A stretch of DNA of 45,894 bases, filler included, from Jimgerdemannia flammicorona (Eukaryota): NCBI GenBank assembly GCA_003990765.1. It is 2 parts of 2 records of this genome, joined end to end, with 100 filler letters (N's around TTAATTAATTAA, not from the genome) between each part and the next. Parts side by side here need not be neighbours in the genome. Positions count along the whole stretch, not along the records: positions 23,003 to 45,894 come from RBNJ01001189.1; 1 more part is not named here. One strand, written 5' to 3'. The notes beneath the pieces were generated by a model that did not search any database, was not told the DNA's origin, and saw nothing but the letters and a program-made list of their open reading frames with translations. Below, piece after piece: positions 7,991-45,894 of this stretch. Numbering within the stretch: position 1 is the first letter of the stretch; the number at the start of each line of letters is the position of its first letter. Position numbers and translations under genes: made by a program.

Positions 7991-8007
7991 TATATCATTA
8001 CTATAAA

Positions 8008-12062: not shown

Positions 12063-12088
12063 GGTATACACCTTCGCCTATTCCAGCA

Positions 12089-23002: not shown

Positions 23003-23686
23003 AAATAGGGGGGGGGGGGGGACGCAAGAACGGTTGCGCATCACATACTACTCAAAGGGTTCTGACTAAATGATCTATGGCCATTCACGGAGTCGCGCAA
23101 TGCTTCTTTGCTTATCGTGCAACATGGAATTTCGCAACCAAGATGACACGTCATACTGCTAATCCACATACTCTTGCCACTAGATAGCAAATAATATATA
23201 TCAGTCAACTCTTCAGTAAAACACCAAAGTACCGAGAATTACTCAGTGACAGGATTGGGGTCGTGAAAAACTCAATACGTCAACCACATCTCAGGAGCTC
23301 CTCACGACTTGAGAAGAAGGGCGGTCAAGAATGGACGTGTGCTGGCGGAGAGCGGTAAGTGGTGAACGGCGAGCGGCGGTGATCGAACGGCGATGATCGG
23401 TGAACGGCGAGCGGTGAGAAGCGAGCGACGGTTGAAGCTGATTTATATAATAACAATGTCTTCCTCCGGGCTTTGCTGGATAGGGTTCTTCATCGTCACT
23501 CATCGCCCCAACCGCACAGCCAAGGCCGAACAAACATCATTGTTTTAGACTACGTGTGTGGTTTGTAGATACAGCGTGCGTATATGATTTGCGCATTCAC
23601 GCGCTAAAGGTTCCCATTCTACCCGCCCGACACACCCATAATACCCTATGACGCACCATTTAGCCGCTCACCAGCCTCAACATCAT

Positions 23687-25779
23687 CTACTTTCCACCAA
23701 CCTCCACCTTAACGACTTTCCCGCCGAACTTCTTCTCCCTCATCACGACCGTCACGCGCTCCTCCGCATCTACCGTCACCACGACCTCGATTTTACTCCG
23801 TCCCGCCTTCAACCCGTCTGCCAGTCCATCAAGTACCAGCTCGGCCAGTAACGTATGCGCCTTGGTCTTGAGATGGACGACGGTCTCCGGCTCGTAGCCT
23901 TCGTCGGCGTCCGCAGGCTTGGACAGGGTCTCGCGGACGACCTCGTGCTCGCCCTCCCAGAGGGCGAGGTAGACCTGCTTCTGACCTTCGGCAACGTTTC
24001 CGAACTCGAATGGCCGGCGAACGGGTAAGGGGGTGTCGCGCGGGACTATGACGACGAAGTCACCTTTGGCGTCGATAACGCCGATGGGCTTGGCAGTATG
24101 CGGAGTGAGAGTGATGACGGGGTGGATGGAGGCGGCGATGTCCTCCGGATCGAAGCCCTGAATGAGCGAGGCCTGGATAGCACAACCGTAGGCCACTGCC
24201 TCGTCGGGCTCGATGTCGAGGCGGATACGAGTGGACTCAGATTTGAATATGTCGCGGAGCTTGGTGGAGAGTTTGGGGATGCGGGAGGAGCCGCCGACGA
24301 GGAGGACCTGCGGAGGGAAGATGTCGGCGCGTGAGTAAAATGCGTGCACACTAGCTGGGTTCGTTGATCAAAAGAGAATGTATTGTGCATTAAGGGCACA
24401 ATAACCTAATAAATAATTTACTTCATCGATCTCATTCGGGTCCAAATCCGCCTTCGTCAGCACCTCCTGAATGACATCCAAGCACCTCGAGAACACCTTG
24501 CTCGCCAAAATCTCGAACCTCAACCTATTGATAGTCCCATGGAAATCCAATCCATCCGCCAACGACTCGACCGAGCATGGCGCCTGGTTCTGATTGGTTA
24601 GGGTACGCTTCGTGATCTCTGCAGATGCACGTAGCTTTGCCAACGCCTTCTTATTCTCCGTGACGTCAATCTTGGTCTTCTTTTTGAATTCGCTTGCGAA
24701 ATGCGCTACGAGCAGTTCGTCGAACGTGACTCCCCCGAGTTGGGTATCGTGAGCGGTAGCAAGGATGTTGAACATGCCTGAGCGGACGTTGAGGACGGTG
24801 ACGTCGAAAGAGTGCCCGCCGAGATCGGCGATGACAACGGTCTGGTCGCGGGGTTCGTGCATGTTGCCCTGCTGCCCGACGTGGTAAGCGAGTGCAGCCG
24901 CGGCGGACTCATGGATGAACTGGAGGACAGGGATGCCGGCGTCAGTGGCGGCGGCGCGGAACTCGTCGCGCTGGTGGTCGGTGAAGTAGGAAGGGATGGA
25001 GAGGACTGCCCCAGTGATGGGGTTCCCGAGGAAGGCTTCGGCGGAGGAGCGGATGTGGCGCAAGTATTTACTCGTGACCTCCTTGACACTGAAGGTGACG
25101 GTCTTCTCGTCATCTAGGGGAATTTCGTACGCGGGGAGGCCATTCTTCTCGATGACGGGGGCGGCGGAGCCAGTAAGGATCTCTGTCTCGGAAAAGCTGG
25201 GAAGAAGGGTATCGGAAGTGGATTAGAATCGTCGCCTTGATGTAACAACTTGTGGTCCGTCAAAGGGTGAATGGAAAAAAAAAAAAAAAAATGTACCTTT
25301 TGCCGATCAAATTCCTAAACGCGGCAACGGTGTGGTTCGGATTGCGGACAATTTGCGCTTGCGCTTGGTTACCCGTGTACTGATAATAGAAGGGAAATCA
25401 ACATAGATACAGCCACAATCTTCTATGAAGGTGTTGGAAAAGTACAAGTCTATCGTCCACCAATGTCATTATAAAGAAGAAACACAAAAATGGTTCATAC
25501 CTCTTCCACCCCCGAGAATGCAATGACGGAGGCGATCTGCCTGTCACCGTCTGGGTTCGCTATGCAGTCAGGGCGGCCGTCCTGTGTGGAAATAAGGCGT
25601 GTTTGGTGTCACGGTGGCGAAGACGAAGAAGACGAAGCAACTCTGTCACGGTCATGAGTCGCGTTTGGCCCACCCTCTCTCTACCCAGAAAGTAATCCCA
25701 ATGGCACCTTATTGATGCAAGCTATGGCGGAATAGGTTGCGCCAAAGTTAATGCCGATGACTGTAGTCTGTTCTGCCAT
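23687..25779 (-). CDS. SSZ1: Atypical Hsp70, ribosome-associated complex subunit Ssz1-like, 543 aa; exons 25779-25708, 25581-25501, 25379-25297, 25196-24422, 24307-23687
   Basis: VIGINFG (instead of GIDLG), IANPDGDRQI, ADLGGHSFDV, LVGGSSRIPK, EPDEAVAYG. Ends after the beta substrate-binding domain with no lid and no EEVD. All four introns are GT-AG and exon lengths sum in frame (1632 nt). Confidence 0.9.
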
Positions 25780-25927
25780 TTGTGCAGTTGGTGGTGTCAA
25801 TCAAGAAGAAGGTGGCCAATGTCAGTCTTTGAGTATTTTATTTTTTTTATGACGTAACTCCTTCCAAGTTGGGTGAAAAAATTAACGTCACAGATCTAAA
25901 TCTTGTGCGCACGGAGTATCATATCAC

Positions 25928-26078
25928 TAAAAACCATGAAGTTGAAAACAGGGATACATTAAAAACCATGAAGTTGAAAACAGGGATACATTAAAAACCA
26001 TGAAGTTGAAAACAGGGATACATTAAAAACCATGAAGTTGAAAACAGGGATACATTAAAAACCATGAAGCTGAAAACA
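25928..26078. repeat. 32-bp minisatellite TAAAAACCATGAAGTTGAAAACAGGGATACAT, 4 perfect copies plus a partial fifth
   Basis: Read directly. No spacers. Confidence 0.95.
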
Positions 26079-26198
26079 AAAAAAAAGAACATAGAAAAAC
26101 TAAAACAAAAAGAACTACAGCTGACTCTACCAATTAAGCTGCGTCGGTTCCCGGTTCGAGCCATCCTTAAAATGATGATTATGCCCAACACAGAACCT

Positions 26199-29100
26199 TC
26201 ACTCTCTCAACCTTCCCTGCTGCCAATCAATAATCTTCAACAGCGTAGGTTCCCTCACCGTAGTTTCCCTCACTGTAGTTTCCCTCACCGTAGTTTCCCT
26301 CACCGTAGTTTCCCTCGCCGTGGTTTCCCTCGCCGTCACCGGAGACCCCTCCATCACAAATGACAGTTCCATTCCTCCCATAGACATTCCTTTCGCCAGC
26401 GGTGCCTCGTCCACCTCCATCATCTCCTTCACCGGCGATTTTTTCTCCACCGACGACGCCCCCCCCACCGCCGTCGCCAGCTTCTTCACGGCTGTCTTCT
26501 TCGATTTCTTCACCTTTTCTGATTCGGCCGTCACTCCCTCCACCTTCTCCGCGCTCCTATCTTTAGGCGGCCTCCCCAGCCTCTTCTTCGGCGCAGGCTC
26601 TGTTGGAATACATTTGATCGCACACCCATCATCCACAATACCTTCGCCAACTGCGTTCTCTTCCTTCTTCGCCGCCGGTTTTCTCCCCCTCTTGCCAGGC
26701 GCGGACTTCTTCGTTGCGTTCGTTGCGCCATCCACACCCTCCTCCCCGCTCTTCGCCACCTGGGTTTTCGGCTTCCGACCCCTCTTTCGCGGCTGCGGTT
26801 TTGACTTCGCCAGCATCTCGTCAAGCACAATGTCTTCCCCTTCTCTCGGCACTGACAAGACTTGGCCAGCCGACCCAACATCTTTAGGTGGTGACGCGAC
26901 CCTCGCACTCTGCCTCGGCTCAGGCGTTCCCGTGTTGATGGTTCCATCGCTGAAACTTTCCTCGCCGTCCCCGTGGTCGACGGTACGGTGGTCGACGGTA
27001 CGGCGGGCGTGCTTCCTTGCCAAAATAGTCATCCGTTTTTTTAACTGAGACTTCATGGTAGTCTCAGCTTCCTTCTTCTCCTTCGCTCGTCTCACCACGC
27101 GCTCGCCTTCCACCTCATCCCACGGCACCTCCGTTACCAGCTTTCCACCAACGCTCTCCCGCTCTACTGCCATCGCCCCCTCCTCGCCGTCCTCACGACC
27201 CTCTGCGCCGGAGCCCAAGAACTGATCGCACGATGCCCACGCGAAAAACAGAATATTCCTCAGCTGTAGCACGTCCTCCTTCTTCCTCTTCGCGCCGATC
27301 TGGCTCATGAGTCTGAACTCCTTCGTAAGCTCCGCGCACCGCACAACGTTCTCCGGGCTTACGAAATCCATTGCGCACTTTACGGCAGCGGCATAGTTGC
27401 ACACCTGATGCGCACACCCGGCGGGGATAAAGACGGCGTCCCCCGGGTTTTGGTAGATGCGCCAAGGGCGCACTCCGTGCTCCTCCCAGAGCCGCTGTCG
27501 GAGCTTGGCATCAAGGTAGATCCATTGGTCGTGGACTGGGTCAACTATGTGATTGTATTTTACCTCTTGAGCATATATGTTGAGAAAATTTTTAATCTTT
27601 GGTAGATCGTCCGCGGGGAAGATGTCCCATACAGCGGCCGCCACTTTTTTGTGCTCCGACGTCTGGTCTACGGCCGACGAGTAAAACATGACATTGACGG
27701 CGTCCGCCATGTCGCAGTGCAGATTCGTCGTACCCTTGCCCTCCTCGCCGTCGTCCGACCCGTACGCTATGTACATCTTGGGGCCTAGGTCCGGCGGGAC
27801 GAACGTGTCGGGTAAGCGGCTAGCCAGGTTCAGCACGCCGTTATCGCCGGTGTAGTCTTTGAAGGGAAGGACGGCCATGAAGTCCTCGTAGAGGACCGGG
27901 AATTCGTCTCTAAAGTCCTGTCTCGGAGGCCAATCCTACGCATTAAAATCAACCAAATGTCTGAGAATTAGTCACTATACAGAATTCACAACTCACATGT
28001 CCAAATTTCTTAATAAATACATATCCATACATAACCCATCCACAACCACCACCATCGTCCCAACCCACCTACTCACCTTTAATTTCAACACTTTGTACTT
28101 GCCGTTCGTATGCTTTTCTCTCTTGGAGACGTCTTCAAATCCCTCAAAAAATCTCTCGACGGTACTGGCGACCGTGATCCCGGTCTCGCAATCGATGACG
28201 TCGACGTCGCGCGCGCCATACTGCTTTACGAAGTGGTCGGGCGACCAGGTTACCCTACTCTCACCGAGCACGTCACGTATAACCACGGCCTCGCCCCGAC
28301 GCCAACGGTCCTGGAACTGGACCAGTTGAACGGCGGAGGCCGACGCATAGAGAAATGGAAGAGAAGAGGGTGACTGCGGATGCGGTGAAACTTGCTGTTG
28401 CTGTTGCAGTGGGGATGGTGGGTGCGATTGTTGTGACGACATGCGCAGTGGCGACTGTGGCAACGATGACGGCGAGGTCGGGTGCAGAGACGGGGAGTAG
28501 CATGGTGACCTAGTCGGGGACCCAACACTGGATTCAGATGAGTGAGTTGGCGAGAGGGGTGATGAGGAGAAGATATCCTGATTGAATGTTGTTGTCGTGT
28601 CGAAAGAAGATGTTCCCGTCGTCGGTCTCGGTATGTTATCGAGCCTCACATGCGACGAAGTCTCGAAAGACCCGGTCACGATCGGGACGAGAGTGCCTTC
28701 CAATACCACGCTTTCCTCTACCTCCAGCTCCGGCTCGCCCACCTCCTCCCATCCACGCTCCGATTCTCGCTGATCCCTCCCCTTACACTGGATCTTCCTA
28801 GTGTTGACGGCGGCCTTCCATACCTCTTCCAGACTCTCCTTCATAAATTTGCTCATACTGAGCATCTGCATTTTGGTGTGGACCTTATCGAACGAGCATC
28901 TCGATGCTCTGGCGACGCCGCCTTCGTCCCATGCGTCATAACAATCTAGACACATATCGACACCGCACGACGAGCACGTCCAGTACGAGTTGAATATGGA
29001 CGTGAGGCAGTAGTCGCACAAGTGCCGCACATAGGGTGCGGGCAACCTCCGGAAGCTCTCATCACTTCTGAGATGGACCATCTCCCTTGCGAGCATGGTT

Positions 29101-32100
29101 TCGAGCGGCCCGGAGATGGTGCGAAGAATGAACGCTTCAACGGTGCGCGCGAAGTCCCGATTGGTCGACCGGTTGGGTTTCCCGATCCGGTACTGTGGGT
29201 CGGGCACGGTGGACGACACGAAAAGTGGGACAAGCGCAATTGTCTCGTTCTTGTCCAGTCGGACGGTCCCCCTTGGCACCGAGGTTGCTCCGGCATCTCC
29301 AACGGTATTTGGTAGCGTGGGAATAATCTCGAAAGCGCGGAACATTTGAAACCGGCAACAAGTGTCACCAGCGGCCTTCCTTGTACAGGCGCGACACTTG
29401 TCGAGTCTTCCGTAGACTCGGCCCACACACCTGTTCCGTTGAATATGCAAACTCTCCTGCGGCACCCTTCTCGCGTTTTCAACTGCTTGCCGGCGTGTCA
29501 TGACTTGCGTGGGCGGGTCTGCAGACGGGCTTTTCGCGTTGGCGTTGGCGTCGGCGTCGGCGTCGGCGTCGAGTCTGCGCCGCTTTAAGCCGCGGCCGCT
29601 CCGTGAGGGTTTTGAATCCTTATCGCTCGTCATAGGAGACACCGGGGTCCGGTCGTCGGCAGATCCCGGAGCGTGGTGCCGATGCTTGGCGACATGAGCC
29701 TGGATTTCGGGAGACGGCTCCTTATCGGAGGTGTTGACAAGCATAGACCTGACCACCTTTTCGACATTGAGATTGTTGTGGATCGGGACGCGCACACGGG
29801 AGGAGCGGCGGCGGCTGCTTGAATTTTCAACGACGGGCCTGTTTTCTTGCTTGGCCATGCGATTGAGCTCGGGTCGACCCCGCTTGCGGGGGGTCTGTGC
29901 GGAAGTAGTAGCGGTGTCGCGAGGATTCGACGCCTTCGTACCGACTTCGTGATTTCCTGAGGGATTTATGCTGGGCTGATGTTGAGCGGCGTCGGAGGGA
30001 AACGCGGTAGCGCGATCGTCAGCGCACGGCTCCACAACCAAGCTTTTGCCGTCACCGCCACGAGCCTTCTCATGCTTGGTTTCTAAGAGCCTGCTCCGTT
30101 CTTCTTGCTCAGTCGGTTTGAGACCAGCCACCTTACCCCTTCCCACCAAAACTCCAGCTCGTTCCTGCTGCTTCAGAACCTCGGCACCACCATCCTCGGT
30201 CACTTCGACCACCCCCTTATCTTTGTCATCCGCCCTCGCACCCCACGCCTGAGCTGTCTCGACCCTTCCATCTTGTACAGCGTTGAGTGTAACCCCACCC
30301 CCGGTGCCGAACCCCTCTTTGGCGTACTTGGCCTGGCTTCGTTCCCGCGCATCGTCCTCACTTGTGTTGGTCGGCGCAAGCAAGAACGCAATACTGGTGA
30401 CAGATCTCGACCGACGCTCTGCGCTGTCATATTCCGTCGGCTTGGTCAGATCGACGATTGGCGTGGTCAGGTCAATGAGCGGCGGCTCCTGAGGATACGC
30501 ACCCTGATGGTACACACCCTGAGGATACGTACCCTGAGGATACGAACGCTGAGGATACGCACTCACGGGATTCCCGCCACGCCATCCAGAGTACCGCGCC
30601 TCGGACGTCGGCATCCCTCCAGTGTACAGTGGCGCCACGCCACCGACACTAGTCCTGTCGGCACGCCGCCTGTCCTCCCATATGCTGGTATATAAGGTGT
30701 CGCCATGCCGTGCGGTGTCAACCATTCTGATGTCCTGGCGCGGCGAAGCCTGTGTGCGACCCGGGGCGAGCCCAACCACGTCACCGGCGTCGGCTGTATA
30801 CGCGGAATTATTTGTTGACTGCTTCTTCGGCCTCGGTGGGGGTACCTCGACTAGCACGACAATATCCGAGTTATTGTCTTCATCGTCGGTTTCGCCGGGA
30901 AAGACGTGCTTATCCTCGTCGCGGGACCTACCCTTTCCGTTTCGCCTTGCCTCATTCCCACCATCCCTGACATTACTAATTTGGCCCTTCCGTTTTTTCT
31001 CCCAGGTTCCATCCCACACCGGCCCATTCTTGGCCCCGACGGGATCAATCTCGTCCCTTTTCCTTTTTGCTGGGACGGACGGCTCCTTCTCGACTACAAT
31101 CTCTGGATACGCGTCCTCCGACTCCTTCGCCTTTGCCGCGGCCCCAGTTTTCAGTGCAGCGGTGGTTGCCTCCGCGCCCTTCGCACAATAGGTGCACCCC
31201 CACCCACACGTAACGCATGTTCTCTGTTGGGGTGGATTGGACTTGACGGGCCATTTGCCCTCTTGGATTTCTCTCCTCCTGCGTTTACGCATGGCTTCCC
31301 AGAATTGCCTTGCGAGCTCGACGTCGACGCATCCCGATAGGCGGACGACGGTGGATACGCGCTCGACGGGCATGTCAAAGTCGCCGCCATAGATGCCCCA
31401 GAACGAGACCAGCCACTCGAGCTGCGTTTCGTCCATGTTCGGAAGGCACTCGTCGGGAGGGATGTGAAGATTAATTGCGGCAGCGTGGGTGGTGGCGGCG
31501 GCGGTGGTGGTGGGACGACGTTGCGTCGTAGAGCTTGAGATGGGGGTTGTAGAGGTAGAAATAAAGTTGCTGCCACCTTGGGGACGCTTGTCGATGTCAT
31601 TCCCATTCACATTTCCCTTCACGTTTCCGTTCACATACGCCGATGCCGTCGAAACCGTCCCTGACGGCTTCCTCCTCCTCGACACCTCCCAATCAACATT
31701 TGGTCTCTCAACTCTCTCACGCTCACCGTCATTTACATTCCGCGTCGCCGCCATAGTCGTGCGTTGTCTCTTCGCGTCCGACTTGGATTCCAGCTCGAAC
31801 TCCGGCTGCCTCGCGACGGCGGAGTCGTCGGGGTACTCCCATATGTCTGGAACCGAGAAATTAATAAGGGGGGTGGACCGGGGAGGGGCGGGAACTGTGA
31901 CTATGGATCGTCCGGCATGATGTGCGTGCTGCGAATGGTCCCTTCCGGCTTCGAAGCCGTGTGCCGGTCCTGAGGAGTCAATGTGTTCCTCCAAGAGGCC
32001 AAATCTCCGGTTCTGATCCTGGTTCCTGGCGGGCTGGTACCGTTCGCTGACCTTGGTCGCGTCAACGGGACCTCCGAAATTAAACGTCAATGGGTAAGTA

Positions 32101-32624
32101 GGGGCGGTGGTACGGAGGCCGCCTGGTTCTGGGCTCGCCCACGGGTGGCTGGAACTTCCACCGTGGTTGAGGAGGCCGTTGGTGGTAGAAAGGGCGACGG
32201 AGGTTGAGGTCAGAGTGGGACCCGGAAGTGTGAGAGGATCAGGATCGTCATCTTCTTCGTCTTGATAAAGGTTTTCGTCACTGCTTTTTGCTTCGTAGAG
32301 GAAAAGCTCTGGTTCTTCTTGTTCCTCTTCTGTGTTCTCTTCGACGTTTATCGGTTGATGGTACTTTAAGCGCTCACGGCGTGGTGATTCCTTCTTTCTA
32401 CGCACGTCTGATTGCTTGCGGGTGTGGGCGCGTGTTGTTTGTGTCATTGTGTCTCCGTCGTCAGCACCGAGCAGATCAATGATGGTGTCGGATCTTTTCA
32501 GTGACGCGGGGTTGTGCTTTTTGCTCGTGTTCGGGCGCTGTTGTCGGAACAGGGGTTGGCTGATATTTTGACGTCGGACAGGCTTTTCCTGGTAATGTGT
32601 GAGGTAGTTTTCTCTTGTCTTCAT
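26199..32624 (-). CDS. KDM3: KDM3/JMJD1 (JHDM2)-type JmjC histone H3K9 demethylase, ~2100 aa; intron 28076-27936; may have further 5' exons
   Basis: CRAC..CRF..FR motif, zinc finger CDYCLTSIFNSYWTCSSCGVDMCLDC, LKLK|DWPP across a GT-AG intron, GTTNLHCDMADAVN (HxD), PGDAVFIPAGCAHQV (distal His). Confidence 0.88.
26243..26335 (-). repeat. 15-bp coding repeat (RETT[AV]) x~6 at the JmjC C-terminus
   Basis: cgtagtttccctcac units. Confidence 0.85.
30488..30562 (-). repeat. 15-bp coding repeat (YPQ[G/R]x) x5 inside the JmjC ORF
   Basis: gaggatacgNaccct units. Confidence 0.85.
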
Positions 32625-33133
32625 CGTGGTTTGGGCGGCAGCTAAAGCTTTCGCGTGAGAAAGAGAGAGAAAGTAAGGAGAGAAGCCGGGGGGGTGGCAG
32701 TATACACACAGTGACTGCTGCGTCGCGCAGTTAGCATGATGTCAGAGAGCATAAGGCTGACTGGAACATCACATCATCGACGAAACTAGTTAGCCTTTTA
32801 TTGTCTACACACGGAAAAAAAAATATATGTATTGTGCATTTGTTTTTGCTATTTACAGCCAACCCAGAAAATGTGTGTGTGTGTGGGGGAGGGGGAGGGG
32901 GGGGGGTTATGTACAACTAATTATATAGAACAAGACTATTCACAATGTTTGTCATTCGTGTGCAAGGAATGTAAATGGAACACGGGAAAATTGGTGAAAA
33001 GAGAAGCAACCAAACGCTTCCGGTAACGAAATCTGTACATCTGTTGCGCTGAGCAAGGAAAGAAAAAGTGCGGGGCGGAATATAACGGTTTTCTTTTTGT
33101 ACACAAGCATATCACTCCTCGACACCTTATCCT

Positions 33134-34356
33134 CTAAACCAAACACCCGAACGGACGATCACCAACACTGAGGCTGCGCATCCTGGTCATGGCGAGCACT
33201 TGCATCATGGCTGTGCTCCAGCTGGATCGTTTCGAGGTCTCAGCGTCGGCGTCGGCGTCAGCATCGTGGTGCGAGAGCGGGTCTATGCCCTTACGCGGAC
33301 GGCGGGTGCTTTTTTGACGGGGTTCATTGTATTTAGGTTCAGAGATGGTCAGCTGCGTGAAAGGTGAGTTGAGAGGCATGGGGTTCTGAGTGCGGAGGAT
33401 GGGAGAGGCTGTGCGCATGAATTGTAGAGTTAGTATCCGATGTGAGCATTTTATGATGAACTGCGAAAACTTCGTCATATTGCGAACAGTATACGTACCA
33501 GGCACAACGGGCGGCGGCAAACCTGATACCAAGTAATCACACATCAACTCCACAGGCTCCTCATACAAGTCACCACCATCCTCCCCTTCGACCATACTGT
33601 TCCCTCCGACCACCTCGACCTCGACATACCTAACCTCATCCCCATTCTCCCTTCCCTCCTCGTCCACGACCCTCTCGTCTTCCTCCCACAATCTCGACAC
33701 CCTCCTCCTCTTCCTATTACAGACTTCGACACCTCTATCCAAGCAAGATCTTGCCCTAGGCACGACCTCGACCTTGGGAGGGGCGGGAGACGACTGCCTC
33801 GATGGCCAACAGTACGGTGAACCGGGGTCGTAGCGGTCGGGGAGCCGGGAGGCACGCGAGATGATCTCAAGAAGCTCAGCATGAGCAGCCTGGTCGGCGT
33901 GCGTGCGGTCGGTGAGCCTGTGTATGTAGTATGTAGGATGGAATGGGGGAAGGTCTGGATGGTGAGTTGAGAACACAAACTCAACAGTCACCGCATTGAA
34001 CACCACAGGCGAAAGCGAAAGCCCGCGCCCGAGGCAAACTAGCAATACCAAAAACAGAAGAGAATAGCAACTCACCACAAGTCCCCTTTACTCAGATTCA
34101 GCCCCTCGTTCACATCCTCATTCCCACCGTCTTCCCCACCGGCGAAGACCACCATCTCAACCCGCACCTTCTCGACGTTCTCCTTATCCTCGTCATCACG
34201 ATCCTGTTGCTTGGGAGGCAGTCCCTTACGCGCGAAAGCTGCTCCGTTCCTTTTTATCGTCGGCTGCTTGGCTGCCAAGAGCAGGCGCACGGCCTTGAGC
34301 GGCGCTGGGGCGACGAGTTTCGGGTGTGAGTGGTTGAAGGTGGGGTCGGACACCAT
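33134..34356 (-). CDS. Spliced ORF of unknown function (exons ~34356-34076, 33917-33499, 33408 onward); a separate gene or 5' exons of the JmjC gene
   Basis: GTGAGT donor at 34075 with CAG acceptor at 33918 keeps frame (W-LTDR). GTACGT..TACTAAC..CAG defines a 90-nt intron at 33498-33409. Confidence 0.6.
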
Positions 34357-35039
34357 ATCTTTCCGTGTGTGGATGCGGTTGCGGTGTGTACGGATGAGTT
34401 GTTTTTAACCTTCAATGCGGGAGAGAAAGGGGCGTCTGCCTGTCCTTCACGTCGTTGACGGAAAGGGGAAGGGGACTAGGCTCAACCAACTTCATTTTTC
34501 ACTTAATACCTGAATCTGAGGCTTGGCGGTCCTCCGATCACATGATCGCCGACCTGCGCCCCCTTTATGAATCTGCTATATTCCGCATGCGCCCCGTAGG
34601 CCCATATCCTCCACCCATTCGGCCATTCGGATCCTTGGCCGATCGATAATTCGCGAGATAATGTGATGTCGGATGGATGGCTTCATGATTATGCGAGATC
34701 GATCCTTTGCGGCGCGGCGATCGCACTCCAAGATATTAAAATGAAAAGGGTACGAGTAGGTTTGCAAGGTTCTGATCAATCAAATGCTATTTCTGTCTCA
34801 AGTTAAATGAAAATTGTCTGATCCCTTCGTGGAAGCACGCCTTTCCTTCACGGTTGTCTATGGAATAGTAAATTGTAAATGTAAACATAGGATGGGTCCA
34901 CGGTGCGTGCTTCGCGGAGCGTGGCTGACGTGATCTGCAAAGTCCACAAACTACATCACTTGGTGCCGTTGGCGTGGCTGGGCCAGGTGCAAGGAGATAT
35001 GGAAGTGGAGGTTTGGCAGGATGTGGGGGGGGGGGGGAC

Positions 35040-35482
35040 GATTCTTACTGACTTTCTCCATTTATTTTCTTTATAATAAATTCACTATAAAATATCAAGG
35101 TTATATTTAGTATTTTAATTGATTAATAGATTTAAATCAATTTTTAAAAAAATATTAGTTATGTATCTTTAATAATAAATAATAAATAAAAGTTATAGTT
35201 TTATTTAGCTTATTAAATATATTTATATAGTAAACTTTAAATATTATTTTATTTATTATAAAAACTTTATATTATATTTTAAAATAATTAATATATTATT
35301 ATTATTATTATTAAATTAAAATATTTACTCTAATGTATAAATTATATATTTAATTATTTTATATATTTATTTTACTTTTTATATAAAAATCATTAGTAAA
35401 ATAATATAAAGATTTTTTTTTTTTTTAAAAAAAATATTAATTATTTTATTAATAATAATTAATCATAACTTATTTTTTATTA

Positions 35483-35520
<38 letters not shown>

Positions 35521-36149
35521 TCTATAATTTTTAAATTATATAAATTTCTTATTTTGTTATATATTTAAATTTAGTTATAAAAGATTAAAATAGTTAATAT
35601 ATTATCAAATTGATTTATTTTATTTATAAGTATTAATATATTTTTATTATTTATCTTAATCTATATATAAATATTCTTATATTATAATATATAGTAGTAA
35701 CTTAGAAAAAATTAGATTTAGAGAGTTCTGAGATCTTTAATCTATTTTTTTCTTTTATCTTATTTTTTTTATTACTCAGATATCTTATTTTACTTTAGCT
35801 CTTTATTATATATTATCTTTTTTTTTAATATTAATTACTTCTAGCTCTTCTATACTATCTCTAATACTCTCTATAGAATTGTCTTCTATTTTTCTTTCTC
35901 TAATACTACTAACTCTAAACTATTACTCTAACTAGTTACTACTATTAATCTACTAGTTTTCTTATTTTTATCTATCTCTTTCTCTCAAATATCTACTGAT
36001 AATATATATATAGTATATATAATAGTTGATCTAAATTAGAAATATAAATTAAGAGAATAGATATTTAATTATAGAATTTGAACATAATTTCCAAATATAG
36101 TATATCTATAAATAGCAGTTATTTTTTATAAATATCAAGATTTAACAAA
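35040..36149. repeat. Extremely AT-rich degenerate repeat DNA including (TA)n at 35485-35517
   Basis: Near absence of C and G over ~35100-35700. Starts just after a poly-G run. Confidence 0.7.
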
Positions 36150-36476
36150 TGTTAAAATTTGATAATTCTCAAAATTTCATAGATATCAAAAATCCATACT
36201 TATGAAAAGTAACTCACAGAAAACATAGTTATAACTTAGCCACCTTATAGCTAACAAACTTATATAAATATCTCCAGTATCTAGAGTGAATAAACCTTAG
36301 ATTAAAATAGTTCAAAGTAAAGAAAAAGTAAGAGAACTAATAAGTCTATAGGTAGATATATGTATTTCAAACTCACACATCTGTACTCTGAGGACTCTGT
36401 GAGAGTTGAAATAAGATCAAGTTTCAAAATATAGAAATCTGCTATACTTCTGAGATTGAACATCTACTATATTACA
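36150..36476 (+). mobile_element. 5' LTR of an older outer LTR element, followed by a degenerate PBS-like site and gag-like DNA to ~37346
   Basis: Begins TGTT and ends TTACA. 36227-36476 is a direct repeat of ~43399-43644. Followed by acttagtatc (TGGTATC-like). Confidence 0.6.
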
Positions 36477-37346
36477 ACTTAGTATCTATTGGCTGGTAAT
36501 TTAAGATAAATCTCTCACTTTTAAGCTAAATAACAAACAACTGCTATCTAAAGAATAACTATATAAACCAAATTAAGATATTTAGACAAAATAGATATAA
36601 GACTACTAGTATTCTATAAATATACTTCAGATGGATTAATTATTATCTTTATTAATGATTTGAATAATATACTACTATAAGAATTCTGACAGTAAGATAG
36701 CAAGTAGTCTTTATACTCTTTAGTCTCTAAAGTTCAATAAGAGTAGTATTTATAGTTGTAAACTATATAAAAGCAGATGATGATACTATATTAGTAGTAC
36801 AAAAGGCCTGGTTCTGAACTACCTACTATATAGATGAGATTAAGTAAGTTCTAAAGAATTAGCTCAATATAATATACTAAGAAATAAGTGAAGATTCAAA
36901 TATATTCTACACCAGAATCTAATATTAGATAATTTTTACTAATTATACTAATACTATCTAAGACTAAGTAGCTGAAGCAATCTTTATAAAAAGAATCTAC
37001 TTAGAGATAGCTATGACTATTTACCACTACTAGTAGTCTTGGACCTGCTACAAAATATCACTTATGCTTAGCAATACTAGATAGCTAGATATTCTCAAAA
37101 CTATATAATAGAAAGAGTTACTAGAGTTAGAATTAAAGTATCTAAGACAACTAGTATAATCTCTACCATAGTGATCAATTAAAATACACCTTAACTAAGA
37201 GCTACTGAATAGTAGAGGAATAGTAACTCTATGAAGAAACTTGCTAAGAAGTTTGCTAAAATAACTGCCCACCTAGAAGATATAGTAAAGAAAATTAGAA
37301 AAAGAGACTGCTACCCCATCGAGAAGTTTGCTGTCACTATAGACAG

Positions 37347-37749
37347 TATAACAGTTCTAGTTTCTAAATGAGGAAGTGACTAATTCTGATGGTCTTAAGT
37401 AGCTCGAAAAGATATTAAGGATTCAAGTATTCTCAAAAGAGTTCTGAGAGAAAATATTCTGAGGCTTTATTCATGAGAACAAAGGGAATATTTATACAAG
37501 ATCTGAAAGAAGGATCTGGAAGGATCTGAGAAATCAAAGGAAAATACCAAGAGGAAAGTTCTTAGCAAAGATGACAAATGATGACAAATAAAGTTCTACA
37601 AGTTTTCAGGATAATCAGTAACTAGCTAAATAAGTACTAGAGGATGCTTGGCACTAAGAAAGGATTTCTAAGCATTCAGAAAGTACTGGAAGGTCATAGA
37701 ATATTGAAGAAAGATAAAGAAAAGAAATAAACTATGCTAAAATGTTACA
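37347..37749 (-). repeat. 3' LTR of the chromovirus
   Basis: TATAAC...GTTACA on the + strand, adjacent to the PPT. Confidence 0.93.
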
Positions 37750-38089
37750 TCTCCCCCTTCTTAAGAATCAATATCCTCATTGAATTCTCAAAGTTATATA
37801 TGATAAAAAATAAGACTAAAAGAAACTTCAAATTAAATGTATTGACTCATTGGCAAGAATTGGTCATCCTTATATAAGGCAAGGACCAAAGTATCATCTT
37901 GATCAGATGAGAACTGGTTCAAATCTCATTGGTTGTAGGATTTATAGGGTTCTCTTATATCTCTTGTTTCTGATGTTATATCCCTTAGAGAGCCCTGATG
38001 TGTAATGTGCCTAATCAGTACAGTAGGTTATCTACTATCCAAGGGGAGAATCTCACAAGCAGTCAATGAGTTCCTTTTTGCTCGAACTC

Positions 38090-41000
38090 TTAGATGAGGT
38101 CTTGGGAGTTCTTGAGATTGGCAGCAGGTTCCCAGGTAGTATTATATTTAGAGTAACCCATCCACTTGACTAGGTATTCTGTGCGACAGTATCAGACTCG
38201 CTTGTCTAAGATTTTCTCAACTTCATACTTGATGTGGTCTTCAACTATAACTGGTGCTGATGGTATCAGAATTTGGCCAGGGTATGGGAGTGACTGGTTC
38301 CAGGCCTTGAGTTATGATATATGGAATACTGGGTGTATATATATGATTGTTGGCAAGTTGAGATAGTAAGACCAGGTGGAGACTTGCTTGGTGATCTCGA
38401 AGGGTCCAAGGTACTTGGGCTAGAATTTGGCTGACTGGCAGTTGACTTGAGATTGAGTCTTGATATTGTTGGCTTTGAGTAAAACCATATCACCAATGTT
38501 GTATATGATATCTCACTGCTTCTTATCTGCATACTTAGCTTGATGTTGCTGAGCCTTTTGTAGGTTCATAGTGGTGATCTTGAGAAGGGAATCTATTTTG
38601 TCAATAAGGTTCTGGGCTATAGAGACTTGTGTGTGACTGGATTGCTGGAATTGGACTAGGCTTGCAGGAGTCTCAGGATTTTGACCATGAAGTAGCTGAA
38701 ATAGGGAAAGACCAGTTGATGATTGGTTAGCATTGTTGTAAGTAAACTCGGCATAGGTCAGATAGTGGTCCCAATCATCTTGCTCATAAGACACATAGTT
38801 TCTGAGCATTTGTTCAAGTATTCTGTTCATTCACTCAGTCTGTCCATCAGTTTGAGAATGGAAGGCAGTGGACATAGCAATTTGGGTTCCAAGGGTCTTG
38901 AAGAGTGCTTGCCAGAAGTAATTTGTGAACTTGGGATCACAGTCACTGATAATTACTCAGAGAAGTCCATAATGGTGGAAGACAGTCTTGAAGAAGATTC
39001 TTGCAATTTCTAGGACAGTGATATTGGTTGTGGTTGGCTCAGTGATTGTAATCTTGGTGAGACAGTCTACAAACACAACAATAGCATCATAGTCTGTTTT
39101 GGTTTGTGGGAGTTGTACAATAAAGTTCATTGTGACTTGTTCAAACTTCTTAGTTGGAATTGACAAGGGTTGTAGAAGACTGGCAGATGCTTGGTTGCTT
39201 GACTTGTTTCTTTGACAAAGATCATAGCTTTGGACATACTCCTTGGTTTCCTTGAGCATGTTTGGCCAGTAGTAGTCTTGTTGGATATTCTTGATGGTTT
39301 TCTCAGTTCCAAGGTAATCAGCTAGTGGGGAGTCATGATGTTCATGAAGAATTTTGTACTGTAGTTTAGGGTTGGTAGGAATATATACTTTGTCTTGATA
39401 GTATATGAGGTTGTCCTTGATGGTGTACTTTTTCTTGAATTCCTTGGTATTCCTTTGTAGAACCAGAGAGTCTTGTTTGTATGCCTTCTTGATTTGATTG
39501 AGGAATTCAGGTGCTATGGTGACTTGTAAAATTGTGATAAGGTCAGGTCTTCTTGAAAGTACATCTGGTACAACTAGAGTTTTGCTGGGCTTGTAGATGA
39601 TGTTTGGGGTAAAGGTCTGAAGTAGTTGACTCCACTTGGCTTGTTGGCAAAAAAGGGTTGGTTGAGTGTTGATGTACTGAAGGGATCTGTAATCAGTGAT
39701 CATGTCAAACTCAACTCCTTCTAGATAGTATTGTCAGATCTTAAGGATATATATGATTGCCAAGAGTTCCTTTTCATGAATAGCCAGCTTTTGTTCTACT
39801 GGGGACAATTTTCTTAACTCAAAGGCAATAGGTTGGTGTCCTTGACCATCATCTTGAGAAATGACTGCACTAATGGCAAAGTTAGATGTATCTATAGTGA
39901 CTGTGAACTTCAAGTTTGGGTCTATGTTTCTCAGAACAGATGCATGGGTCAGGCAGTTCTTGAGTTCTTGAAAAGCTTGTTGACAGAAAGCATCCCAGAT
40001 ATAGGGGACATAGAGGTCAGAGTTGGGTTCCTTTCACAGGAGGTTTGTCAAAAATTCTGTAATGCCAGAGAAGTTCTTGACAAATTGATAGTAGTATCCA
40101 GCCAGACCAAGAAAGGACCTGGGTTCGGTGAGGTTTGCTGGTACAGGCCACTGTTCAATGGCTTGTATTTTCCTTGGGTCTACTTGAATTCCTTTGGCTG
40201 ATATAATGTGTCCAAGGTATTCAACTTGATCCTTGAAAAATTTACATTTCTTAAGCTTTGCATAGAGCTTATTCTCACAGAGGATCTTGAGGACTTATTC
40301 AATATGCTTGAGATGTTCTTCTTCAGTTCTACTGAAGATCAGGATGTCATCAATATATACAAGTATAAAGATATAGAGCTGGTCCTTGAAGACAGTTTGC
40401 ATGAGATCTTAAAAGGTTGCTGGTATATTGGTGAGACCAAAGGCTATGACTAGAAATTCATAGAGTTCAAAGAGTGTCATAAAGACAGTCTTGGGTATGT
40501 CTTCTGGCTTGATTTGAATTTGGTGATATTCAGAGGTAAGATCAATCTTGGTAAAGTACTTTGCATTCTTGAGAGCATCAAAGATTTGATCTATGAGCAG
40601 TAGTGGATAATAGTTCTTGACTGTGATCTTGTTGAGTACTCGGTAGTCTATGCATATTCACAGAGTATCATTCTTTTTCTTGACAAATAGAACTGGGGAG
40701 CCAAAGGGTGACTTGCTTGGTTGAATAGCTCCTCACTCAATGAGTTCATTGAGTTCCTTCTTGACTGCTTCAATTTCGAGTAGAGATATGTAGTACATTT
40801 TCTTCTTAGGTATAGCTACATTAGGTACTAACTTGATTTCATGGTTATGGTCTCTTGAAGGTGGTAGACCAGGTAGTTTGTTTGGGAAGACATCCTTGTA
40901 CTTATTCAGTAGTAACTTGACACTTTCACTAATTGATAGCTTCTTGTCTTCTTTCTTTGGTCGGACTAGTACCACAAAGGTACAGGTAGCTTTCTTGAGG

Positions 41001-41457
41001 GCCTTCTTGAACTGAATTGCTGAAAGGGTAGCAATTGGAGTTCTCGTCTGAGTCTTGTCTAGCTTGATGGTAATGTTGGCTCCATCCTGAATCAAGGTGA
41101 CTTCATTCTTGGTCCAATCAATCTAAGAGTTGTGCTGTGTAAGCTAGGGTTTGCCTAGGATCAGGTCATGGTCTCCTAGTGGTGCTACCTCAAAGTCTAA
41201 ATGTTCTCAGTACTTCTGGATCTTGAGGGGAAGTTTAGTGGCAATTGAGTCAATTGGTAAGGTAGTGCTATCTGCAGTGATAACTCTACTATTCTTGCTA
41301 GCTAGTTTGGTGAGAATCTTGAGCTTGTCAATGAGGTTCTTGTTGATGAAGTTCTCAACAGCTCCACTGTCTATGAGAACATCTAGTTCTTGTCCCTTGA
41401 CTAGACCTTTGAAAATGAGCATTGAATTGGCTCAGTTCTCAGCTATGCTTGCAACTT
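38090..41457 (-). pseudogene. pol: aspartic protease, RT, RNase H, integrase, chromodomain; many stops
   Basis: [97 protein letters not shown]. Confidence 0.93.
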
Positions 41458-41860
41458 AGTCAGTGCTGCCAAAGCCTTTCTGATCTCACTTGGTTGGAGA
41501 TAGCTTGGTGACTTCTTTGATGACTGGTAGAGTAGCTCGCTCCAGAATGAGCTGTGCAATTCTGTCACCTTCATTGACAGTGTATGGTTGGTTCTTGTAG
41601 TTGACTAGCAGGACTTGCATTTCACCTTGAAAGTCAGAGTCAATGACTCCAGCACTAATATTCAATGAGTACTTGAAACTGAGGCCAGATCTTAGTGCAA
41701 TTCTTACATAATATTCCTTGGGGATTTTGACTGAAAGGCCAGTTGGAATGAGCCTTCTCTCATGTACTGGAATAGTGACTTGTTATACTGCTTAAAGGTT
41801 CAAACCAATGGCTCCTTCTGACTATGCTTGAGGGATCTAGGCCTTGGGGTTGACTCATAT
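41458..41860 (-). pseudogene. Trimeric dUTPase domain within the retrotransposon polyprotein, in frame with gag
   Basis: My translation: GAIGLNL*...IPTGLSVKIPKEYYVRIALRSGLSFKYSLNISAGVIDSDFQGEMQVLLVN...GDRIAQLILE...*DQKGFGST, matching dUTPase motifs I-V. Confidence 0.92.
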
Positions 41861-42720
41861 GAAATTGAGTATAACTTCTTGTTCAACTGGTTGACCTTGA
41901 GTATCTTTGGACAGAACCAGGATCCTTTTTGGTTTGGCAGTTTTCTTGGGACATTTGGTTGCAATATAATCAGGCTGACAGAAAAAGAAGCAGGCTCCAG
42001 CCTTCTTGAGATGCTCCTTTTCCTCAGGTGTAAGCTTGCCTTTCTTGCTCTTGTTGATGGTGTCTAGGTCCATGGGGGCAGGTCCAATTGTTCTGACTTT
42101 GGGTTCCTCCCTTCTGTGGTTATTGTTGTTGAAAGGCAGTCTCTTCTGTTCAAAGCGGTGACTATAAGTGATGACATCAAACCTATCAGCAATTTTCATT
42201 ACTATATCTAGGTCCTTGGGTTCTTCTAGTTCAACATGAACTCAGGTTTGACCTTTCAGGCATCAGATGTACTTGTTGACCTTCTCATCTTCAGTGACAT
42301 GTGGTAATTCTAGCAGGATTGATAGGAATTGTATATTGTATGCTTGCACAGACTTGAGTTGTTTGACATTTGCCAGATGGTCTCATATAGCCTTGATGCT
42401 ATTGACTGGTTTGAATTGGCCTTGAATAGCATCAGAGAATTCACCCCAGGTCTTGATTCAGCCAGAGAATCTGGTATTCTGGACATGATTTCACTACCAG
42501 ATTGCAGTATTCTCTTGGAGAAATGTAGCAGCAAATTGGACTAGTGTTGCTTCTTCCAAATTGGTCAGTTCTTTATATTGCTTCAATTGGAAAGCCAGAC
42601 ATTGGTAGACAGTCCTCCTCTTTGACCATCAAAGATGTTGGGTTTCTGAGGCTTAATAGTGACTGCTGTCGGATATATTGATATCAGTGGGGGTACAGAG
42701 GTATGAGCAGAGGCCTTGCT
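41861..42720 (-). pseudogene. gag of the chromovirus
   Basis: KPQKPNIFDG, FAATFL..AIW, PAPMDLD, KLTPEEKEHL..GACFFFCQPDYIATKCP (degenerate CCHC knuckle). Confidence 0.85.
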
Positions 42721-42966
42721 TTTCTTTCTTTCTATTCATTCTTAAAGTTGAGCAATTTAAGCTAATGCAGTCTGCAAAAGACTCTCGATGGCCCCATTTG
42801 ACTGAGTAGGGTTTTGCTGTTCCTCTTCTTCTTACTGATAGTATGAGATATTGCCTGGACCATAGATACTATAAAGGATTCCACCCATTGTTCTCCATAG
42901 TGTTGTGACTGATATCTTGAGAGATGTCTTGATAAGGCTAGGTGTAACTTAACCACTGCTACCAAG

Positions 42967-43369
42967 TATAACAGTTCTAGTTTCTAAATGAAGAAGTGAC
43001 TAATTCTGATGGTCCTAAGTAGCTTGAAGAGATACTAAGGATTCAAGTATTCTCAAAAGATTTCTAAGAGAAAATATTCTAAGGCTTTATTCATGAGAAC
43101 AAAGGAGATATTTATACAAGATCTGAAAGAAGGATCTGGAAGGATCTGAGAAATCAAAGAAAAATATCAAGAGGAATATTCTTGGCAAAGATGACAAATG
43201 ATGATAAATAAAGTTCTACAAGTTTCTAAGACAATCAGTGACTAGCTAAATAAGTACTAGAGGATGCTTGGCACCAAGAAAGGATTTCTAAGCATTCAGA
43301 AAGTACTGGAAGGTTATAGAATATTGAAGAAAGACAAAGAAAAGAAATAAACTATGCTAAAATATTATA
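42967..43369 (-). repeat. 5' LTR of the chromovirus
   Basis: Ungapped match to 37347-37749, adjacent to the PBS. Confidence 0.93.
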
Positions 43370-43398
43370 GATATGAAGAAAGATACCTACTATATCTG

Positions 43399-43644
43399 AG
43401 TTATAACTTAGTCACCTTATAGCTAGTAAACTTATATAAATATCTCTAGTATCTAAAGTGAATAAATCTTAGATTGAAATAGTTTAAAGTAAAGAAAAAG
43501 TGAGAGAACTAGTAAGTCTATAGGCAGATACTTTTCAAATATACATCTCTGTACTCTAAAGACTCTATAAGAGTTAGAATAAGATTAAGTTTCAAGATAT
43601 AAAAATCTACAATACTTCTGAAATTAGACATCTGCTATATTATA
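43399..43644 (+). mobile_element. Partial second LTR of the outer element
   Basis: Direct repeat of 36227-36476. Ends TATTATA (from TATTACA). Confidence 0.65.
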
Positions 43645-44199
43645 ATAGCTATTATTATCTATAAGCTTAAAATTCTCTCTAAACTTCTTTAGATATCTCA
43701 AATATTACTAATTAATCTTTATTATATAGTTATCTCTATTATCTATTTAGTTTTTTACTCCTTATCTTTTTAATATCTTTAAAATCTTTCTATATCTTGA
43801 TAGTTTACTAAGATATATTCTAATATCTATATCTTACTACTGTAATATATCAGCTCAATAAAGACAAATTATAAAGTTAGAAGTACTATATAGTTTGGCT
43901 TAAGTCTTTAGTTACTTTGTCAAAAAGTAACAAAATGTTCAATAGTTTCTAGTATTCTTATTAGTATTTAGTAGTATAATAGTCAAATCTAGATAGAGTA
44001 GTTGATTTTCTTATTGAAATAGTTCTTAGATATAGTGGTAATTTATATGTAATTTTTTTTTTTTGAATGGCAGATAATTTCTATATAGTGTGATAATCTT
44101 TAAATATATATAATTTCTATATAATAATCTTATATAATATAGCAGATTTGGTGAGATTCCTTAATAAGAAGTGAGTTAGTAGTTTCAATAAGTAACTTA

Positions 44200-45894
44200 G
44201 TCTTAATAGATAACTTAGATAACTCAGATATATAACTTAATAACTCAGATGGTAGATAACTTGAGTAGTATAGATTCTTTTCTTAGCAAAGTTATGTCAA
44301 AGACTGACTTTATTTATATAAATAAGTTCACTGTAAAGTTATATAAAAATAGATTAATATTATAGTAAGATATAAGTAGACTTCTCTTCTTTATATCAGA
44401 AAGTAGACCAGAGTAAAAAGTAAGCTCACAATCTCCTAGTAGTGGTTTTAAAACAGATATTTCTCCTAAGTATTGCAATTCTTTTCCTTTAGGATTAAGT
44501 GACTTTTAGTAGATATATCTCTTGAAGTATAGTAGGTAGACTTATCTTTTACTTTGAAATTTTTAGACTAAGATTTATTTATTCTTATCTCTGGGGTATT
44601 TTATATAATTATAGTTGCTACCTAATTACTATTTAACTAACTATAGATTGCTATTTATGGGAGAGAAGCAGACATTTACTATTAGGGTAATCTTTGAAGT
44701 TAGAGTGATCTTTAGGATCAAAGTGACCTTTAGGATCAGAGTGACCTTTGTAGTCAGAGTGATCTTTATGGTCAGAGTAACCTTTATGATCAATAATGTT
44801 TCTCTCTTTAGTTATTTGGTTATTTATACAAGTTGGTACAATAGAGTAGTCCTGATTAGTTAGTATATATAGTATAGTATATAGCTAAATTATAGTAACT
44901 AATTCAGATAGTAACTTGGTATATTTTTCTACTAACTCATTATATCAGCCTCTACCAAAGAATAGTCTATCTTCAGACTATCTTTTAGTCATCAGTTCAA
45001 TATATATAGATGTCTTCTATATCTATGCTAGTGCTATTATCTTCTTTTATATCTAGATTACTCTATTCTAGTTCTAGGTCTTCTTTCTGTTCTTTAGAGA
45101 ATAGGATATCTACTTATTGAAGAGTGCTTTAGAAGGTTACCTCATTTATCTGATAGATATCAATCAGATAAAAATAGGCTTATAACAAGGCTCTTATATT
45201 TTATTCATATAGAGTATAAAGTCTTTTTATAATTTAGACTTCTCAGAGAGTTATATCAGCTGGTCTTCTTAGATATAGTTGCTCTTATAATAATTGTCTA
45301 ATATTATAGAAGGTCTGCAGATAGTGGATCTATAATAGCCTCTGAACAATGGTAAGGTTTTCTTAATACTTTTGGATCAATTATATCAGAGTTCCTTCAA
45401 GTAGACAGAACTAAGGCAAGAGAATAGACAGAGCTTGAAAGGAACTGAAAATAAGGATCTGAAGATACTGGTTAATTCTCTAGATCATTATATAATAGTA
45501 GATATATCTTGAGATAATTAATATATACTAGAGTCTTCAGAGGTTATCTATCTATACTTCTTAAATAGATACTGATTTCTCTGATATTATATATAAGATA
45601 AAGTCTTTCTCATTTAGACTCTAATTTGATAGTAAAGTTTATTTCAATTATACTTCTCCAGACTAGTACTTGATCTCTAATTTTGATCTTCTGATTCTTC
45701 TATTTCTGATTATAGTCTTTTCTGAGTCTTAATTATCTGAGCTTAGACTTGATTATATAATTATTCTGCCTTTTTGAGAAGATCTCTGAAATTCTCATAA
45801 TTAGCAGTTTTGGTTTTCTTAATAAACATTATCTCAAATAGCTTTTGTTTGATAGTAGAAATATTCTAAATTTTCTATAGGATCTCTTTTTTTT
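44200..45894 (-). mobile_element. Degenerate family B copy: integrase C-terminal GPY/F-like domain (~45490-45740) plus long 3' region
   Basis: Minus strand reads KIRDQVLVWR...KLESK*ERLYL...RSIDR*PLKTLVYINYLKIY, which reverts by transitions toward GDQVLV..KLEPKWEGPY..RLKIY. Homologous to 230-950 and 6640-7990. Confidence 0.55.
44681..44791. repeat. 18-bp tandem repeat (rtcagagtgayctttakg-like) x6
   Basis: Read directly. Minus strand reads as HKGHSD-like hexapeptides. Confidence 0.85.

Follow-up and report, generated by a model that had tools for sequence, protein, structure and literature searches.

Directional C>T decay of a chromovirus and other repeats, with a RIP-like outcome, in a genomic window of Jimgerdemannia flammicorona

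The stretch of DNA analyzed here (the window) comprises 45,894 nt of the Jimgerdemannia flammicorona assembly in two joined records, with positions 23,003-45,894 derived from RBNJ01001189.1 and N runs at 22903-22946 and 22959-23002 at the join. At 37347-43369, it contains a Ty3/Gypsy chromovirus in minus-strand orientation that is structurally complete but dead. Both this element and all other repeats of the window have been degraded almost only by C>T and G>A changes, which affect both strands. The decay is confined to repeats in this window, and the neighboring single-copy genes and spacers are untouched. Its outcome, with many stop codons, no frameshifts, and AT-rich blocks with sharp edges, resembles what repeat-induced point mutation (RIP) leaves behind, while a trigger by duplication remains hypothetical. 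As an explanation, we favor 5-methylcytosine-linked deamination of repeats that acts on cytosines in all contexts and is RIP-like in its outcome, and we assign this explanation a probability of about 0.58.

Mutation by RIP or in a RIP-like manner is considered characteristic of Dikarya. An earlier inspection of this DNA by eye (the sequence-only reading) had considered the case that the host is an early-diverging fungus rather than a RIP-competent ascomycete. In line with this case, an SSZ1-like Hsp70 fragment encoded in the window shares 99% identity with a J. flammicorona protein, 84% with Endogone sp., and 66% with Umbelopsis. These best matches of a single protein, which do not amount to a phylogeny, point to a host within the Endogonales (Mucoromycotina), namely J. 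flammicorona or a very close relative. A search with the JmjC protein of the window yielded generic JmjC clusters only and was uninformative with regard to the host.

Transition-dominated divergence of the two LTRs

A position-by-position comparison of the two 403-bp long terminal repeats (LTRs) revealed differences at 26 of 403 sites, which correspond to 24 transitions and 2 transversions, without any indels (for 24 of 26, P = 5e-10 against a 1:2 null and P = 0.0025 against a 2:1 null). The sequence-only reading had arrived at the same counts by hand, and its description of the LTR ends as TGTTACA and TATTATA was likewise borne out. On the plus strand, the transitions consist of 12 C/T and 12 G/A differences. 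Since the A/T state is divided between the copies, being found at 10 sites in the copy starting at 37347 and at 14 sites in the copy starting at 42967, both LTRs have been changed, as had been proposed.

With respect to the context of the C allele, differences were found at 12 of 43 CpA, 3 of 16 CpC, 5 of 68 CpT, and 1 of 1 CpG sites, while at three further sites the neighboring base differs as well. The earlier assignment of many changes to CpA, CpC, and CpT contexts is therefore correct, with only one change located at CpG, and CpA was changed more often than CpT (Fisher P = 0.006). No TG/CA discordant pair was found between the two LTRs, which suggests that they contained almost no CpG at the time of insertion.

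Directional damage in the coding region

The gag-pol frame, which lies on the minus strand (no strand had been given previously), is interrupted by 42 stops in 1738 codons (22 TGA, 11 TAA, and 9 TAG), and no frameshift was found along its 5.2 kb. The read-through translation, with X at stops, was aligned with 12 intact homologs of 45-48% identity, selected from at least 120 homologs, and columns were considered conserved if at least 4 of the 12 homologs were aligned and at least 75% of them agreed (n = 571). Only 8 of the 42 stops fall into such columns, but 7 of these 8 occur where homologs have Arg or Trp, a clear enrichment over the background of 71 Arg, Gln, or Trp columns among the 571 (P = 3e-6). 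The claim that pol stops largely replace Arg, Gln, or Trp thus holds for those stops that can be judged; the remaining 34 lie outside conserved columns, and for 15 of them at least one homolog has a fitting residue. At the 38 conserved Arg columns, 16 codons of the element were classed as products of CpG decay, and the codons found there include TGA (4), CAA (4), CAG (2), TGT/TGC (4), TAT/TAC (3), and CAT (1).

The same direction is evident from amino acid replacements. The element differs at 168 of the 571 conserved columns, and 73 of these differences can be reached only via a single C>T or G>A change, compared to 4 only via a reverse transition and 44 only via a transversion. The corresponding leave-one-out analysis of the 12 intact homologs yielded 114 forward, 53 reverse, and 209 transversion replacements when pooled (Fisher P = 1e-6 for forward/reverse and 7e-7 for forward/transversion). 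For 78 forward changes, a unique site could be determined, and by present context these comprise 31 CpA, 21 CpG, 18 CpC, and 8 CpT sites; 57 of the 78 are therefore non-CpG, with the qualification that some of the present CpA sites may be former CpG. On the coding strand, the 78 changes are split into 35 C>T and 43 G>A. The damage to the chromovirus is thus directional, present on both strands, and mostly located outside CpG.

The strand distribution is also relevant for a different type of mutagenesis, in which an APOBEC-like deaminase would edit the cDNA or RNA of a retrotransposon during retrotransposition, prior to its integration. The elements concerned are retroelements, and the chromovirus carries a dUTPase domain, a function that serves uracil avoidance in some retroviruses. 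However, the changes are strand-symmetric both in the LTRs and in the coding region, the two LTRs of a single insertion differ with both having been changed, and AT-rich repeats that are not retroelements share the same spectrum. We consider this explanation very improbable and rejected it; a G>A excess restricted to the coding strand, as such editing would leave, was not found.

A search for related loci resulted in one close match, a metagenome contig of 1077 bp (L001), while the distant L002 was left out of the comparison. At positions 6-950, L001 encodes the integrase and SH3 portion of a chromovirus from the same family (82% amino acid and 86% DNA identity). Compared to the integrase region of the element, L001 exhibits 115 transitions and 24 transversions, and it carries at least 8 stops. 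Decayed copies of this family are thus present in an environmental sample as well.

Spectrum and context in other repeats

Three copies of a second family, designated a, b, and c (Table 1), extended these observations. Between copies a and b, 647 transitions and 106 transversions were counted. Differences were found at 146 of 230 CpG sites (with 90 additional TG/CA discordant sites), 116 of 577 CpA, 91 of 658 CpC, and 41 of 577 CpT sites. From these context counts, we estimated by hand that the common ancestor of a and b contained ~340 CpG (observed/expected ratio [o/e] ~1.1) and that each copy has lost ~65% of them.

Changes in the AT-rich copy c were polarized at sites where a and b agree. 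Forward transitions amount to 459 (C>T, 222/510 sites; G>A, 237/441 sites), compared to 41 reverse ones (T>C, 28/510; A>G, 13/362), and transversions are few. Losses reached 82% at CpG (41/50), 68% at CpA (149/218), 46% at CpC (123/268), and 25% at CpT (61/245), while T>C changes amount to just 3-6% in every context. Per site, C>T is ~13 times as frequent as T>C, which implies an equilibrium GC content of 7%. This is close to the most AT-rich tract of the window (35100-35700, 6.5%) and not to the unique spacers (44-53%). A TpCpG preference has reportedly been observed in Basidiomycota, but no clear effect of the 5' neighbor was detected in copy c (TCG 18/22, CCG 12/14, ACG 3/4, GCG 5/7).

Transitions also outnumber transversions in the five other repeat pairs of the window (30:4, 55:17, 14:8, 17:8, and 117:39). 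Taken together, C:G>T:A transitions dominate the differences among repeat copies, whether between the LTRs, between a and b, or in copy c. CpG is the strongest target, with a ranking of CpG >> CpA > CpC > CpT that the LTR pair follows likewise, and among the non-CpG contexts, CpA ranks first in each of the three comparisons (CpA vs. CpT, Fisher P = 0.006, 1e-10, and 3e-21). Nevertheless, the C>T excess is not limited to CpG, as is evident from the non-CpG losses of 25-68% in copy c and the 57 of 78 changes in the chromovirus. The earlier characterization of the mutation as transition-dominated and not restricted to CpG is therefore well supported.

The presence of N runs in the window and the N50 of ~11 kb given in a published table for the public J. 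flammicorona assembly raise the question of whether the LTRs or repeat copies could be chimeras of different genomic copies within a short-read scaffold. However, a chimera would not yield a directional spectrum consisting of transitions, the element is collinear with a primer-binding site (PBS), a polypurine tract (PPT), and one open frame, and the signal recurs in six further independent repeat pairs. Such an assembly artifact is hardly credible and was rejected on these grounds.

Confinement of the decay to repeats

The composition of the window is a mosaic. The genes at 23-35 kb exhibit 47-60% GC and a CpG o/e of 0.9-1.24, compared to 39-43% GC and a CpG o/e of 0.00-0.12 in the LTR element. 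Only 14-31% GC, along with a CpG o/e of ~0, was found in three blocks (1-8 kb, 35-37 kb, and 43-45.9 kb). The CpG o/e of old repeats (0.00-0.12) is in stark contrast to that of four single-copy non-coding segments (0.87-1.10, at 44-53% GC) and of genes (1.12-1.14). Moreover, the transitions between these states are abrupt: near 35050-35100, ~100 bp suffice for GC to fall from 40-59% to 5-10%, and the number of CpG per 100 bp rises from 0 to 2-8 exactly at 12066, the junction between two elements. In moderately decayed elements, (CpA+TpG)/(ApC+GpT) ranges from 1.3 to 1.8, and CpG depletion with an excess of TpG/CpA is confined to repeats.

AT-biased mutation is general, and repeats are non-functional. 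It could therefore be argued that old repeats simply underwent ordinary, neutral AT-biased mutation, while selection or biased gene conversion kept genes and spacers GC-rich, without any process specific to repeats, an argument that is aided by the purely compositional nature of our unique-DNA control. We regard this as improbable, since the bias in copy c is extreme, a CpG o/e of ~0 is found only in repeats compared to ~1 in the four unique non-coding segments, and the state switches within 100 bp at element junctions. Furthermore, the ratio of forward to reverse replacements is 73:4 in the chromovirus but 114:53 in intact homologs.

Probable methylation-linked deamination and possible RIP

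In the mechanism that we favor, repeats would be marked with 5-methylcytosine by methyltransferases of the DNMT1 or DIM-2 type, with CpG being heavily and other cytosines less methylated, and methylated cytosines would then be deaminated, either spontaneously or with the assistance of an enzyme. During a first stage, all CpG would be lost, leaving TG/CA-rich sequences, and the LTR element with its 39-43% GC would represent this stage. During a second stage, cytosines in CpA, CpC, and CpT would be lost as well, which would result in AT-rich relics (27% down to 5-14% GC).

Alternatively, a true RIP-like process could be at work, in which duplicated sequences would be detected, probably at about the time of the sexual cycle, and cytosines in both copies deaminated in bursts, without RID and perhaps via a DIM-2-like enzyme. 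RIP in Neurospora prefers CpA, and its features include tracts in which the C>T or G>A changes of a single copy are strand-coherent. Several results are in line with such a process, including the dominance of C>T/G>A in every repeat pair, 42 stops without a frameshift, and AT-rich relics that adjoin GC-rich genes with sharp edges. In addition, values above 0 were obtained for the composite RIP index in 1-kb intervals of the relics (1001-6000, 35001-37000, and 43001-45000), and the ratio of transitions to transversions is not clock-like between elements.

On the other hand, CpG rather than CpA is affected first. The composite index of the LTR element is negative, and its (CpA+TpG)/(ApC+GpT), at 1.24-1.52, fails the classical index for CpA-type RIP, with values below 1 obtained only in the AT-rich relic blocks. 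Compared to a context-matched simulation, no strand-coherent tracts were detected in copy c (161 switches compared to 157.7 ± 9.3 expected), and the results for a, b, and both LTRs were non-significant. Furthermore, the tandem copies a and b still have 52% GC at 83.5% identity.

With regard to enzymes, the literature offers arguments for either side. A DIM-2-dependent branch of RIP has been described in Neurospora (bioRxiv 10.1101/2021.04.05.438447), and DIM-2-like methyltransferases are reported for Endogonales and Glomeromycota (Navarro-Mendoza et al. 2023, PMC9963178). The same source reports RID only from Pezizomycotina, and PMC8298701 credits the clade of arbuscular mycorrhizal fungi with RID. 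Overall, methylation-linked deamination accounts for the evidence no less well than homology-triggered RIP, and we consider it rather unlikely that Endogonales have a genuine repeat-directed C-to-T mutator that is RID-independent and probably based on a DIM-2/DNMT1-type enzyme. The RIP-like, repeat-directed defense suggested by the sequence-only reading is thus retained in part: the mutation is directional, affects both strands, extends beyond CpG, and is confined to repeats, but CpG is its strongest target, the CpA index failed, and strand tracts are lacking. Likewise, the many non-CpG changes support its distinction from plain 5mCpG decay, whereas the prominence of CpG indicates that methylation-type decay is part of the picture.

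It should be noted that several points weigh against 5-methylcytosine-linked deamination as well. The contrast between repeats and unique DNA is a compositional surrogate, and both selection and biased gene conversion could act on composition as well. Non-CpG transitions and transversions are found at a ratio of 23:2 in the LTR pair compared to ~305:106 between a and b (Fisher P = 0.054), and this difference hints at episodic rather than clock-like mutation. CpG is hit hardest here but spared by Dim2 in Zymoseptoria, so that at least two activities or a different enzyme preference would be needed. Finally, the basis within the genome is narrow, consisting of one ~46-kb window, to which a single environmental relative of 1 kb is added.

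Features of the window

The assignment of the element to the chromoviruses is based on its LTRs, a PBS-like motif, a PPT, the order gag-PR-RT-RH-IN, and a C-terminal chromodomain, while the target-site duplication (TSD) is weak (Table 1). In detail, Pfam matches follow the order Ty3 capsid/gag, dUTPase, aspartic protease, RVT_1, RNase H, integrase (H2C2, rve), SH3, and chromodomain. The dUTPase domain (PF00692, E = 2e-28) is located at 41462-41842 on the minus strand, between gag and protease, and PF00692 is also found in several of the best environmental homologs (P0244, P0256, P0258, P0267, P0268, and P0280).

Table 1. Positions of the chromovirus, further repeats, and the gene block within the window.
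Feature	Position	Strand	Remarks
5' LTR (element orientation)	42967..43369	-	403 bp; direct repeat of 37347-37749 (self-BLAST, repeat search)
3' LTR	37347..37749	-	403 bp; direct repeat partner
PBS-like motif TGGTAGCAGTGG	42953..42964	-	2 nt after 5' LTR; putative tRNA primer site
PPT AAGAAGGGGGAGA	37750..37762	-	abuts 3' LTR
Internal region, one frame, 1738 codons	37750..42964	-	Pfam matches all in same frame
Possible TSD GACAG	37342..37346		pairs with GATAT at 43370-43374; 3/5 identical, weak
Copy a, RVT_1 retroelement	12066..16625	+	52% GC; CpG o/e 0.35-0.57; RVT_1 E = 4e-16; comparison copy
Copy b, RVT_1 retroelement	17232..21753	+	tandem with a; self-BLAST 83.5% identity over 4.5 kb
Copy c, AT-rich relic of a/b family	2885..6041	+	27% GC; collinear blocks 62-70% identical to a and b
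AT-rich block between last gene and LTR element	35051..37346		5-38% GC; CpG ~0
Repeat X	36227-36477 and 43399-43645		two copies, flanking LTR element
AT-rich block right of LTR element	43370..45894		contains a copy of repeat X (43399-43645) as well as element E (44280-45577)
Single-copy gene block, internal control	23003..35050	-	44-60% GC; CpG o/e 0.87-1.24

Copies a and b are arranged head to tail, 5166 bp apart, and appear similar to long interspersed nuclear elements by eye only. Copy c contains an internal repeat, with 2885-3547 matching 5377-6041. An old AT-rich element (E) is unbroken at 44280-45577, and a second copy at 465-941 and 6691-7938 is split by ~5.7 kb that contain copy c. Arrays of 18/36-bp tandem units are found within the AT-rich blocks at 2388-2539 and 44690-44793.

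The region 8000-12065, which stops exactly at the start of copy a, is unusual in its composition: at 46% GC, it comprises 34% G and 12% C (GC skew +0.42 to +0.51) and is almost devoid of CpG. No Pfam family was found in its three plus-strand frames, and a tblastx comparison with copy a yielded only 9 short low-complexity matches and no real similarity.

The gene block encodes the SSZ1-like Hsp70, a JmjC protein, and open reading frames of 1543 and 314 aa. The spacer between the genes for the SSZ1-like and JmjC proteins harbors 4.7 copies of a 32-bp unit (25928-26078; 99% identity), which are unmutated, unlike the long repeats. Abutting the gene block, the tract at 35100-35700 (A 42%, T 52%) contains overlapping internal repeats of ~160-200 bp and may represent a satellite or a fully decayed repeat.

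Implications

Full-text literature searches, the coverage of which did not extend to Chang et al. 2019 and Bewick et al. 2019, revealed no description of RIP-like mutation in Endogonales. In a kingdom-wide k-mer screen, Badet and Croll 2025 (PMC12543289) describe repeat-enriched mutation signatures in ascomycetes only and classify J. flammicorona ("Jimflamm") as "no_rip". This is consistent with the earlier assumption that the host belongs to a lineage without established RIP. For Jimflamm, 23 k-mers are listed as enriched in non-coding DNA, the highest number among the 30 Mucoromycota rows, and none in repeats. However, the genome is given there as 231 Mb with 42.8% GC and 73% repeats, and only scaffolds >50 kb were used, so that a contrast between repeats and non-coding DNA would have little power.

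What is described here is a directional destruction of repeats by C>T in all contexts in a mucoromycote, together with a GC-rich/AT-rich mosaic that is usually a hallmark of RIP. If it occurs genome-wide, it would place the origin, or a convergence, of mutagenic genome defense outside Dikarya and tie this defense to DNMT1/DIM-2-type enzymes instead of RID. Moreover, it would imply that screens comparing repeats with non-coding DNA are weak where 73% of the genome consists of repeats, and it would be relevant to the annotation of transposons and genes in Endogonales genomes. Should the less likely case of a genuine mutator be true, RIP-type defense would be older than Dikarya or have originated a second time, it would have given the 231-Mb genome its GC-rich gene islands as well as its AT-rich relics, and the k-mer screen would have missed it.

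Comparison with known systems

RIP of Neurospora and other Pezizomycotina shares with the present case the C:G>T:A mutation of repeats on both strands, stops without frameshifts, AT-rich relics beside GC-rich genes, and a high TpA/ApT in the relics. Differences concern the CpA preference of Neurospora, compared to CpG >> CpA > CpC > CpT here, and its strand-coherent tracts, which were not found in c, a, b, or the LTRs, as well as the host, which is a mucoromycote here.

The hypermutation of transposable elements in Basidiomycota likewise concerns non-ascomycetes, has CpG as its strongest target, and was attributed either to deamination linked to methylation or to a process resembling RIP (Horns et al. 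2012, PMC3318451); the heavy non-CpG loss in copy c and the absence of an effect of a 5' T set the present case apart. Outside Dikarya, RIP has been suggested for Zoophthora radicans, a repeat-rich, early-diverging fungus, and for other Entomophthorales (PMC11105155). While that suggestion concerns another phylum and relies on a composite dinucleotide index only, the results presented here were obtained from aligned copies, polarized changes, and counted contexts within one window.

In Zymoseptoria tritici, Dim2-dependent CA>TA mutation of repeats occurs in mitosis, with >98% of C>T changes located at CA and CG being spared (Möller et al. 2021, PMC8016269), whereas in the window CpG is affected first and CpC and CpT are changed as well. 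Nevertheless, both cases have in common a repeat-associated C>T mutation at CpA, which in Zymoseptoria requires neither RID nor meiosis (PMC8016269), and an enzyme of the DIM-2 type has been reported for the order of the present host (PMC9963178).

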